Sequence record: PV682947.1
Origin: Escherichia phage WPEC4
DNA: 64,000 nt
Reading direction: 5' to 3' (one strand)
Under the pieces are notes generated by a model. The model was given only the letters and a program-made list of their open reading frames with translations, was not told where the DNA came from and made no database searches. The translations under genes were made by a program, and so were the position numbers. Position 1 is the first letter of the stretch. Each line of letters opens with the position of its first letter. Below, piece after piece: positions 1,158 to 2,114 of the stretch.

Positions 1158-1235
1158 GGACTTGTAGAGTTAAGGTAAACCCCCCAGTCGCCAAGAGGCT
1201 TCTGGAATTGCAGGTATCGAATCCTGCCGAGTCCC
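1158..1235 (+). tRNA. tRNA-like element, possible pseudo-tRNA: intact acceptor stem and T-arm, no canonical D or anticodon arm
   Basis: 5' GGACTTG pairs with 3' CGAGTCC; T-arm GCAGG-TATCGAAT-CCTGC with an 8-nt loop; the interior does not fold as a cloverleaf by eye. Confidence 0.3.
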
Positions 1236-1241
1236 AGCTTT

Positions 1242-1316
1242 GCTCCTATAGTATAATGGCTATTACAACGGTTTTGTAATCCGTGGATCTCTGTTCGATT
1301 CAGAGTGGGAGCACCA
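1242..1316 (+). tRNA. tRNA-Thr (anticodon TGT)
   Basis: Acceptor GCTCCTA/TGGGAGC, anticodon loop TTTGTAA, T-arm CTCTG-TTCGATT-CAGAG, CCA. Confidence 0.7.
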
Positions 1317-1591
1317 ACACAACATTAAGAGCACTGTGATTGATCGTCGTATCCTGTGCACAAGGTCTGTTCGAAAGACAGTGTTCTTAGTATTGTGTTG
1401 ATCACACAAAAAGAGTTACCTGAAACTTGACCGGAGTAGGGTTGGATGGGGCAAAAGAAGAAGCGGCTCTCCCATCGACAGCAACGAAGAATAATATTTG
1501 ACTTTGGTTTTGTATTATTTTAAGTTAGCTTACCGAACGTAGGGCTAGTCACCCAATGGGATACTCGTCACTGTCCCACTCAATAAAACTA

Positions 1592-1621
1592 TTGACAACC
1601 AATAGTAAAATGTAGTATAGT
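1592..1621 (+). promoter_or_regulatory. sigma70-like promoter: TTGACA 1592-1597, -10 region TGTAGTATA 1611-1619
   Basis: AACTATTGACAACC motif; 12-15 nt upstream of tRNA-Gly. Confidence 0.45.
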
Positions 1622-1632
1622 AAAGAGGTAGG

Positions 1633-1706
1633 GCGTTCTTGGTGTAGCGGTAGCATTCCGTCCTTCCAAGTCGGCGGCACGAGTTCGATCCTCGTAGAAC
1701 GCTCCA
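1633..1706 (+). tRNA. tRNA-Gly (anticodon TCC)
   Basis: Acceptor GCGTTCT/AGAACGC, anticodon loop CTTCCAA, T-arm ACGAG-TTCGATC-CTCGT, CCA. Confidence 0.7.
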
Positions 1707-1804
1707 AATTATTTAATAAAGGGTTGCCAGAAAACTTTCTCTTTTACTCATGGTTTTCTCCTTCTCTCACACCTCTTCTGGTTGCCCTTCATTAAATGAT
1801 TTAT

Positions 1805-1880
1805 TGGTTTGTAGTGTAGTCAGGTAGCACACGACACTTTGACTGTCGTAGGTTTGGTTCAAATCCAGACAGACCAGCCA
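1805..1880 (+). tRNA. tRNA-Gln (anticodon TTG)
   Basis: Acceptor TGGTTTG/CAGACCA, anticodon arm CGACA-CTTTGAC-TGTCG, T-loop TTCAAAT, CCA. Confidence 0.75.
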
Positions 1881-1885
1881 TATAA

Positions 1886-1962
1886 CGGAATTTAGCTCAG
1901 TTTGGTAGAGCATACGCTTTGGGAGCGTAGGGTCGCAGGTTCGAATCCTGCAATTCCGACCA
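1886..1962 (+). tRNA. tRNA-Pro (anticodon TGG)
   Basis: Acceptor CGGAATT/AATTCCG, D-arm GCTC..GAGC, anticodon arm TACGC-TTTGGGA-GCGTA, T-arm GCAGG-TTCGAAT-CCTGC, CCA. Confidence 0.8.
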
Positions 1963-1968
1963 ATTTAA

Positions 1969-2042
1969 TGTTTCGTAGTTCAATGGTAGAACCCACGACT
2001 GATAATCGTGAGACACAAGTTCGATTCTTGTCGAAACAACCA
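1969..2042 (+). tRNA. tRNA-Ile (anticodon GAT)
   Basis: Acceptor TGTTTCG/CGAAACA, D-arm GTTC..GAAC, anticodon arm CACGA-CTGATAA-TCGTG, T-arm ACAAG-TTCGATT-CTTGT, CCA. Confidence 0.8.
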
Positions 2043-2044
2043 AT

Positions 2045-2114
2045 TTCCCGTTAGACTTACAGGATAAGAGTTCCACAACTTATTGTGATGCTGGTTCGAA
2101 TCCAGCACGGGATA
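2045..2114 (+). tRNA. tRNA-like element with canonical T-arm and acceptor but aberrant anticodon region; no encoded CCA
   Basis: T-arm GCTGG-TTCGAAT-CCAGC; acceptor TTCCCGT/ACGGGAT with a 1:72 mismatch; interior has only a CACAA/TTGTG hairpin with a 4-nt loop. Confidence 0.3.

Follow-up and report, generated by a model that had tools for sequence, protein, structure and literature searches.

Transfer RNA (tRNA) clusters of bacteriophages house small structured RNAs beside the tRNAs proper, among them the species 1 and 2 RNAs of T4 (rnaC and rnaD). In the T5 group, RNA1 and RNA2, both tRNA-like, and RNAI, RNAIII, RNAIV, RNA2H and RNAX are likewise small structured RNAs that are co-transcribed with the phage tRNAs. 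A further member of that set, RNA3, is of a kind that has been known to T5 specialists since a GenBank annotation of 2004, and it is absent from Rfam. Outside the phage world, mascRNA and menRNA as well as the t-elements of plant mitochondria have the shape of a tRNA in which the anticodon loop is reduced or missing; ribonuclease P (RNase P) and the enzymes of 3' processing recognise them, and they do not decode. Partial mimicry of tRNA by a non-decoding RNA is also met in YrlA RNAs of bacteria and phages and in the tRNA-like domain of transfer-messenger RNA (tmRNA), and it is this sort of mimicry that concerns us here. We analysed 64,000 nt of Escherichia phage WPEC4 (record PV682947.1), called the window in what follows, which contains two short elements of tRNA-like outline, El1 at 1158-1235 and El2 at 2045-2114. 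Both are embedded among genuine tRNA genes. The eukaryotic RNAs just mentioned (mascRNA/menRNA, RF01684, and t-elements) are unrelated to them in sequence, the Rfam mascRNA model giving no match, and the other T5-group stable RNAs are longer (103-785 nt) and have no sequence similarity to them, a direct comparison of El2 with RNA1, RNA2, RNAI, RNAIII, RNAIV, RNA2H and RNAX being negative throughout. RNA3 is another matter.

El1 and the RNA3 family

The window comes from a Phapecoctavirus, that is, a phAPEC8-like E. coli myophage of the Stephanstirmvirinae, and the two elements belong to a tRNA cluster that occupies 274-2199 on the plus strand. The minimum free energy (MFE) structure computed for El1 with RNAfold is a three-helix fold, and none of 200 shuffled sequences folds as well (z = -3.33). 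In its T-arm, positions 1210-1214 pair with 1223-1227 and enclose a loop of 8 nt, where the canonical loop has 7. There is no 7-nt anticodon loop: CCAG (1184-1187) and CTGG (1202-1205) bracket a segment of 14 nt, within which GCC and GGC may pair in a second helix around an AAGA loop. The D region offers two or three pairs at most, the 3' end has no encoded CCA (AG follows C1235), and no open reading frame (ORF) of at least 50 amino acids runs over the element.

In a search tuned for distant matches, the part of the window that aligned with T5-like phages comprised tRNA-Asn and extended 24 nt into El1. At this locus the T5-like phages have, directly after tRNA-Asn, a 73-nt element with the same outline as El1. 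It is annotated in Salmonella phage 5 (AJ604531) as the misc_RNA rna3, a "tRNA-like RNA with unknown functions", and in DT57C (KM979354) as RNA3, a 'putative stable RNA with unknown functions'. Gene order agrees as well, El1 being placed directly 3' of tRNA-Asn (1065-1150) on the same strand, rna3 of phage 5 occupying 6817-6889 behind a tRNA-Asn at 6732-6814, and rna3 of DT57C likewise standing directly 3' of tRNA-Asn. When rna3 of phage 5 is compared with the window by blastn, it aligns with 1163-1228 at 70% identity (expectation value, E, 1.6e-4). A covariance model built from nine T5-type sequences only (R3) finds its top match in the whole 64-kb window at 1158-1236, with 35.6 bits and an E of 1e-8; under the combined covariance model (R1), El1 reaches 79.2 bits.

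The likeness extends to the parts. Apart from their place after tRNA-Asn, T5-type RNA3 and El1 share a seven-position acceptor, the D motif GTAGAGTTAAG(G)TAAACC, an ATTG linker, a T stem of 5 bp with an 8-nt loop N-ATCGAAT, and a hairpin that replaces the anticodon arm. They differ at pair 1:72, which is G1-C72 in El1 and U1.U72 in T5-type RNA3, at the 3' end, where T5-type RNA3 encodes ACCA and El1 no CCA, and in the downstream neighbour, tRNA-Thr for El1 and an ORF for T5-type RNA3. Justusliebigvirus alia and A150 have a third, more diverged version, flanked by tRNA-Asn and tRNA-Thr (tRNA-Asn at 1632-1716 and the El1-like element at 1721-1792 of the Justusliebigvirus locus), and Justusliebigvirus arall, KKE7M and PD114 have an El1 of the window's type. 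What all versions hold in common (alignment A2) is the motif GTAGAGTTAA..AAACC, the ATTG linker and an 8-nt T-loop N-ATCRAAT. The central arm, by contrast, changes from lineage to lineage: in the window it is made of 4 bp, an internal loop and a tip of 3 bp, against 6 bp with an ATTT loop in Justusliebigvirus alia, 6 bp with a CAAYCA loop in the T5 types, the central loop thus counting 14, 4 or 6 nt. Altogether the RNA3 element was found in 354 T5-type records and El1 in 89 records of Stephanstirmvirinae type. Judged by this comparison, El1 is the Phapecoctavirus counterpart, and a so far unannotated member, of the RNA3 family of the T5 group.

Covariation tells that the structure matters. It was examined in 16 distinct sequences, with the acceptor, the central stem, the T stem and two D pairs specified, and 94.1% of the cells of the alignment form standard pairs, compared with 28-46% when the partners are slid by one to three columns. 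Changes on both sides of a pair, i.e., compensatory ones, occur in 11 of the 19 pairs (acceptor 4/7, central stem 3/5, T stem 4/5), and none in the D pairs 12-24 and 13-22. The central stem of RNA3 covaries even within the T5 types alone (G-C to A-U, U-A to C-G), and homologs folded independently of one another all return the same three-helix shape, with z between -3.0 and -3.7. As far as the alignment can tell, this pattern is unlike that of a decaying pseudogene. Within Phapecoctavirus, mean pairwise diversity is 0.011 for El1 and 0.035 for El2, good tRNAs having 0-0.02 and the most variable spacers 0.05-0.10; El1 is as conserved in the genus as good tRNAs are.

El2 and the lack of decoding

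The acceptor of El2 consists of 6 bp and a U1.U72 mismatch (TTCCCGT against ACGGGAT), its central stem of 5 bp (2074-2078 with 2083-2087), and its 3' end reads A-CCT, with no encoded CCA. Its MFE structure is a cloverleaf-like fold that, again, none of 200 shuffles could equal (z = -3.05). Short ORFs that run over El2 were rejected as genes: they overlap genuine tRNAs and are spurious, the one annotated in WPEC2 included. A first-pass annotation of this stretch had proposed tRNA-like elements at these two places, each with a 7-bp acceptor and a T-arm, with neither a standard D-arm nor a 7-nt anticodon loop, and with no CCA encoded in the second. Their existence is borne out by the folds and by homologs with compensatory changes. 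Both T-arms and the acceptor of El1 are as described, and so is the irregular interior (a 14-nt segment or extra helix in El1, a 4-nt loop in El2, weak D stems in both). The description needs amendment in three respects, the acceptor of El2 having six pairs and a mismatch, the T-loop of El1 having 8 nt, and the lack of CCA applying to El1 as much as to El2.

Matches to El2 were found in 77 phage records, almost all of them Phapecoctavirus. Beyond this genus, the element is present in the Vequintavirinae A7_1, A73, W70 and UPEC06 (80-84% identity) and in the Drexlerviridae phage phiEB49 (78%), where it is annotated as tRNA-Val and where ARAGORN at default settings calls an AAC anticodon; a reciprocal search that started from phiEB49 recovered only the El2 family. 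Throughout the family one finds a conserved acceptor, a conserved T-arm and the string TTAG-CTTA-AGGATAAGA. The central loop is not conserved: Phapecoctavirus has 3-4 nt there, Vequintavirinae have 5 nt closed by a 6-bp stem, and phiEB49 has 7 nt. Compared with El2 of the window, which has a 5-bp stem, a 4-nt loop and no CCA, the Vequintavirinae copies are thus a step longer in both stem and loop, and the 'tRNA-Val(AAC)' of phiEB49 has a canonical-looking 7-nt loop UUAACAA, a G1-C72 pair and an encoded CCA.

El2 scores 104.6 bits under its own covariance model (R2), and ten distinct sequences entered its covariation test. Here 91.3% of the cells pair, against 31-50% with the partners slid, and four pairs show compensatory changes (2-72, 3-71, 31-46 and 50-66). 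Across lineages no pair is broken in the acceptor (pairs 2-7) or in the T stem, and the unpaired cells of the central stem belong to phiEB49 only, where the stem stands one position out of register in the alignment. A canonical D stem (10-13 with 25-28) is poorly supported, with 80% of the cells paired, and an alternative pairing of the D domain, CTTA/TAAG, never varies. The nine Phapecoctavirus sequences have no substitution in the acceptor, central or T stems; their variable sites are in loops, at unpaired positions and in the poorly supported D stem. One metagenomic copy changes an A-U pair of the central stem to G.U. Taken together with the El1 data, these comparisons indicate that the helices of both elements are kept by selection and are not in decay. 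El2 belongs to a second small tRNA-like family, essentially unannotated, which probably descends from a true tRNA; the phiEB49 copy retains a canonical 7-nt loop. In the simplest history, the anticodon loop of that tRNA would have collapsed and the remainder stayed under selection. As for the parent, the best matches outside the family, T5-type tRNA-Glu (38.6 bits) and tRNA-Lys, were discarded, the alignment being uninformative.

Members of the two families score 76-105 bits under R1 and R2, ordinary tRNAs at most 39 bits, and the two models find no further copy in the window. In IMG/VR, a strict pattern returned only the known T5-like, Justusliebigvirus and Phapecoctavirus copies together with chance matches; looser patterns, combined with model searches of 128 loci, brought no new lineage, only chance matches or ordinary tRNAs, and one metagenome scan added only more Phapecoctavirus. 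A host origin finds no trace in 5,426 complete E. coli genomes, none of which has a match to El1 or El2. Of about 90 matching Phapecoctavirus and Justusliebigvirus records, not one annotates either element as an RNA gene.

Neither element is able to decode. Neither has the canonical anticodon arm, a 5-bp stem and a 7-nt loop with U33, and the canonical 4-bp D stem with A14 and G18G19 is wanting in both, the GG of El1 not being conserved across lineages and position 14 of El2 being T. Set against the canonical acceptor and T-arm, El1 has the 7-bp acceptor with a longer T-loop, and El2 the T-arm with the mismatch at U1.U72. ARAGORN at its default settings calls neither of them, cmscan of positions 1-2800 against Rfam places no match on either at E<=10, the tRNA model RF00005 (gathering threshold 29 bits) included, and in close relatives annotated with tRNAscan-SE they are not called. 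Folding as ordinary tRNAs by standard software, a possibility raised beforehand, was therefore not obtained at normal thresholds with ARAGORN or Rfam. There is no tmRNA in the window according to ARAGORN and Rfam, and no tag reading frame; the only match of the region to YrlA (RF02553), at 1907-2026, has 22.8 bits where the gathering threshold is 69, and overlaps tRNA-Pro and tRNA-Ile. Charging by a specific synthetase is also unlikely, because neither the nucleotide that follows the acceptor helix (C or A in El1) nor the 3' tail is constant in closely related phages.

Table 1. Parts of El1 and El2 and putative signals of their transcription units (window coordinates)
Feature	Position	Strand	Basis and remarks
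El1, tRNA-like RNA gene, homolog of T5-group RNA3	1158..1235	+	fold, covariance models, blastn, covariation; discriminator C1235
El1 acceptor, 5' strand GGACTTG, pairing with 1228-1234	1158..1164	+	compensatory changes across lineages in 4/7 pairs
El1 D region TAGAGTTAAGGTAAACCCC	1165..1183	+	motif GTAGAGTTAA...AAACC nearly invariant in three phage lineages
El1 central hairpin in place of anticodon arm, CCAG/CTGG enclosing TC-GCC-AAGA-GGC-TT	1184..1205	+	fold; covariation
El1 T-arm, 5-bp stem and 8-nt loop, TATCGAAT	1210..1227	+	4/5 pairs compensatory
El1 acceptor, 3' strand CGAGTCC	1228..1234	+	covariation
El2, tRNA-like RNA gene	2045..2114	+	fold, model R2, homologs, covariation; discriminator A2114, then CCT
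El2 central hairpin, CACAA/TTGTG stem with 4-nt loop CTTA replacing anticodon loop	2074..2087	+	sequence
El2 canonical T-arm GCTGG-TTCGAAT-CCAGC	2090..2106	+	100% of cells paired; pair 50-66 compensatory, G-C to A-U
Promoter-like site, TTGACA-18-TAGATT	622..651	+	consensus match only; unit containing El1
Promoter-like site, TTGACA-18-TATAGT, 11/12 matches	1592..1621	+	consensus match only; unit containing El2
Intrinsic-terminator-like hairpin and T run, end of tRNA cluster	2315..2333	+	annotated terminator in phage ASO2A

A proposed role in trans and its rivals

The reading that we favour, at a probability of roughly 55%, is that El1 and El2 are selected, non-decoding RNAs of tRNA shape, matured by host enzymes and acting in trans as tRNA mimics. 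Both are inside polycistronic tRNA arrays, on the same strand as the flanking tRNAs and 2-7 nt away from them, and would for that reason be transcribed together with these tRNAs. RNase P recognises an acceptor/T-arm minihelix, and both elements have one. The enzyme would cleave at the 5' end of the element and at that of the tRNA behind it, releasing RNAs of about 70-78 nt; host trimming of the 3' end would follow, and possibly addition of CCA. The mature RNAs would present the surface made of acceptor, T-arm and elbow to some tRNA-binding factor and stay out of decoding; this factor could be a host nuclease or toxin directed at tRNAs, or else an enzyme of tRNA processing or modification. Pair 1:72 is mismatched in four of the six lineage-level versions of the two elements, and in E. 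coli a 1:72 mismatch disfavours binding of EF-Tu, as the initiator tRNA illustrates. By analogy, the missing anticodon loop and the frequent mismatch would fit an RNA kept away from EF-Tu and the ribosome. This mismatch, the variable 3' end and the case against mere punctuation made below lead us to favour a trans-acting mimic.

To be weighed in the first place is a role in cis, where the fold would recruit RNase P and the 3' enzymes, so as to punctuate the polycistronic precursor or to protect neighbouring RNAs, and the excised RNA would have no function of its own. This would suit the embedding of both elements in tRNA arrays, the situation of T5-type RNA3 ahead of a ribosome-binding site and an ORF, where it could set the 5' end of the messenger RNA, and the punctuation of transcripts by tRNA-like structures in plant mitochondria (t-elements) and at MALAT1 (mascRNA). 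Mere punctuation is nevertheless unlikely, because each element stands between two genuine tRNAs that have RNase P sites of their own, in a cluster whose other genuine tRNAs abut with gaps of 2-6 nt and need no extra element, and because the processing signal, for which the acceptor and T-arm minihelix is enough, requires neither a central hairpin, yet this is maintained by compensation, nor the D-region sequence of El1, yet this is nearly invariant.

Less probable again are decaying tRNA pseudogenes carried passively in a conserved tRNA cluster. The first-pass annotation had left the choice between 'decaying tRNA genes or non-canonical RNAs', and one can see why: the anticodon and D regions are not canonical, CCA is not encoded although each of the 12 genuine tRNAs of the cluster encodes it, the loop of El2 varies in length within the genus, one isolate is without a G of its D-loop, and the phiEB49 homolog still resembles a tRNA. 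Decay does not, however, preserve acceptor, central and T helices by compensatory changes across phage families, nor does it spare these stems from substitution within a genus, as seen for El2, while surrounding spacers diverge faster; and El1 and RNA3 persist over the 89 and 354 records counted above. Of the two terms of that choice, the comparisons uphold the non-canonical RNA, conserved, structured and linked to RNA3, and speak against decay.

Decoding tRNAs with unusual anticodon arms (Leu(CAA), Ser(ACU), a frameshift or a suppressor tRNA) are the least credible, as ARAGORN reports 'Leu(caa)' at 1158-1235 and 'Ser(act)' at 2046-2113 at an 80% threshold that also yields an antisense false-positive 'tRNA', and these forced registers need mismatched stems, put C instead of U at position 33 of El1, lack the long variable arm of Leu or Ser tRNAs, and propose anticodon loops that El1 homologs in T5 and Justusliebigvirus do not have and that are not conserved in El2, in line with the silence of the Rfam tRNA model. 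The relaxed, intron and mitochondrial modes of ARAGORN were not retained as evidence for tRNAs, since they gave only forced, mismatched calls amid obvious false positives.

A number of observations weigh against mimicry in trans. The role of mimic or decoy is deduced from shape alone, and the record of DT57C goes no further than a 'putative stable RNA'; a literature search brought up no work on the function of RNA3 or of similar tRNA-like RNAs of phages. Covariation relies on about three independent lineages per element, hence on a modest number of evolutionary events, and the margin of El1 over an ordinary tRNA under model R3 is about 5 bits (35.6 against 30.7 for tRNA-Met). El2 is somewhat more variable than genuine tRNAs, and one isolate has a G-to-A change in the GG of its D-loop, both of which fit a weaker constraint; by its pattern of substitutions, El2 is somewhat less constrained than a tRNA, yet not neutrally evolving. 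Finally, the tRNA region of T5 can be deleted in the laboratory (PMC11464382), which would make any function conditional.

The tRNA mimic we favour nonetheless finds a plausible setting, in that phage tRNA clusters are now seen in part as a response to tRNA-attacking nucleases of the host. The tRNAs of T5 counter tRNA-cleaving defences such as PARIS (PMC11464382), and, according to a work cited in PMC10644984, a T5 tRNA counters retron Eco7. One may go further and see in El1/RNA3 and El2 a wider class of 'disarmed' phage tRNA mimics, with the anticodon loop closed, pair 1:72 weakened and maturation left to the host, which would serve as decoys or inhibitors of tRNA-directed immunity or of a tRNA-binding host enzyme. 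This generalisation is speculative and rather unlikely. Were the elements indeed decoys for tRNA-binding factors, they would represent a new type of phage counter-defence, based on RNA and complementing the nuclease-resistant phage tRNAs already described in T5; otherwise they amount to a minor gap in annotation. In either case two non-decoding, tRNA-shaped RNAs are kept by selection in four groups of phages that belong to several families and subfamilies (Tequintavirus, Stephanstirmvirinae, Vequintavirinae and a Drexlerviridae phage), and standard annotation overlooks them, as they are absent from Rfam and go uncalled by tRNA finders. The link between El1 and RNA3 provides a comparative structure for an RNA that has carried the label "unknown function" for 20 years; it points to the acceptor, the invariant D-region motif and the 8-nt T-loop as the parts that matter, and it places the RNA in two genetically tractable phage systems.

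The tRNA cluster and its structured spacers

Over bases 1-2400 the window matches Escherichia phages WPEC2 and WPEC6 at 100% identity and many Phapecoctavirus genomes at 97-99.8%. Default ARAGORN finds 10 tRNAs at 274-2199; Rfam adds a tRNA-Tyr (971-1055), and a class II tRNA at 660-746, sub-threshold by its Rfam score, is annotated as Ser-TGA in phage ASO2A. Promoter-like sites at 35-64, 622-651 and 1592-1621, together with the terminator-like hairpin at the end of the cluster, would divide it into three units on the plus strand. A longer motif, AAAACTATTGACAA followed by a -10-like hexamer, is present in three copies (26-64, 613-651 and 1583-1621), one at the head of each tRNA unit.

Several members of the cluster are odd in their own right. 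The tRNA-Ser(UGA)-like gene (660-752) and tRNA-Tyr(GUA) (971-1058), neither of which default ARAGORN calls, are atypical alleles of the clade: Rfam gives them only a tRNA-Sec match of 37 bits, below threshold, and a tRNA match of 39 bits, and the Tyr gene is labelled 'Pseudo' in Mt1B1_P17. At the same Ser and Tyr positions, phiWec188 and one IMG/VR contig have a different and more canonical allele, which suggests cassette replacement. The second tRNA-Met(CAU), at 2121-2199, combines an A1.C72 mismatch with a 5-bp D stem and a 9-nt loop; tRNAscan labels it 'Pseudo-CAT' in Mt1B1_P17, although its conservation extends to Justusliebigvirus. Between tRNA-Gln and tRNA-Pro, several Phapecoctavirus genomes have an extra segment of about 90 bp (2180-2272 in ASO2A), which by eye makes a closed stem structure; the window is without it, the corresponding site being 1881-1885. 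In Klebsiella phage ZCKP1, some 800 bp with a helix-turn-helix antitoxin gene are inserted within the tRNA cluster. Past position 2400 or so, the 159-kb record of WPEC2 (PV691511.1) shows a long block of minus-strand genes where the window has plus-strand ORFs. Compared with the window, that record may contain a rearrangement or a misassembly, and gene context was not taken from it.

It had also been suggested that spacers may hold further tRNA remnants, 1331-1405 being singled out for pairing of acceptor and T-arm type. They do hold structured RNAs, and these are not remnants of tRNAs. The stretch 1331-1405 makes up the interior of a 26-bp hairpin (1317-1398) that hardly varies; its z is +0.30, and its T-loop-like string GTTCGAA reads GCTCGAA in five of the eight relatives compared; for these reasons it was ruled out as a tRNA-like element. 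Further on, 1403-1590 has conserved ends (such as ACCGAACGTAGGG...GTCCCA, immediately upstream of the promoter-like site at 1592) and a middle that is replaced in some relatives. After tRNA-Arg, 426-612 makes a closed multi-branch fold of 187 nt (MFE -53.9 kcal/mol, z = -4.42); Salmonella phage KE22 has a match of 70%, and in phiWec188 the closing stem shows one compensatory change. The region from about 849 to 965, between tRNA-Ser(GCU) and tRNA-Tyr, is a conserved structured RNA with a closing stem and three hairpins; it is 73-95% conserved in Phapecoctavirus, Justusliebigvirus and Vequintavirinae and 84.7% in Tequintavirus phC11, with four compensatory pairs. Finally, 1707-1804 and 2200-2290, which make a long hairpin or sets of hairpins, are near-invariant in the genus, with two to three variable sites, and 2209-2280 is 90-94% conserved in Justusliebigvirus. 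These structured spacers mirror the "stable RNAs with unknown functions" annotated in the tRNA regions of the T5 group.

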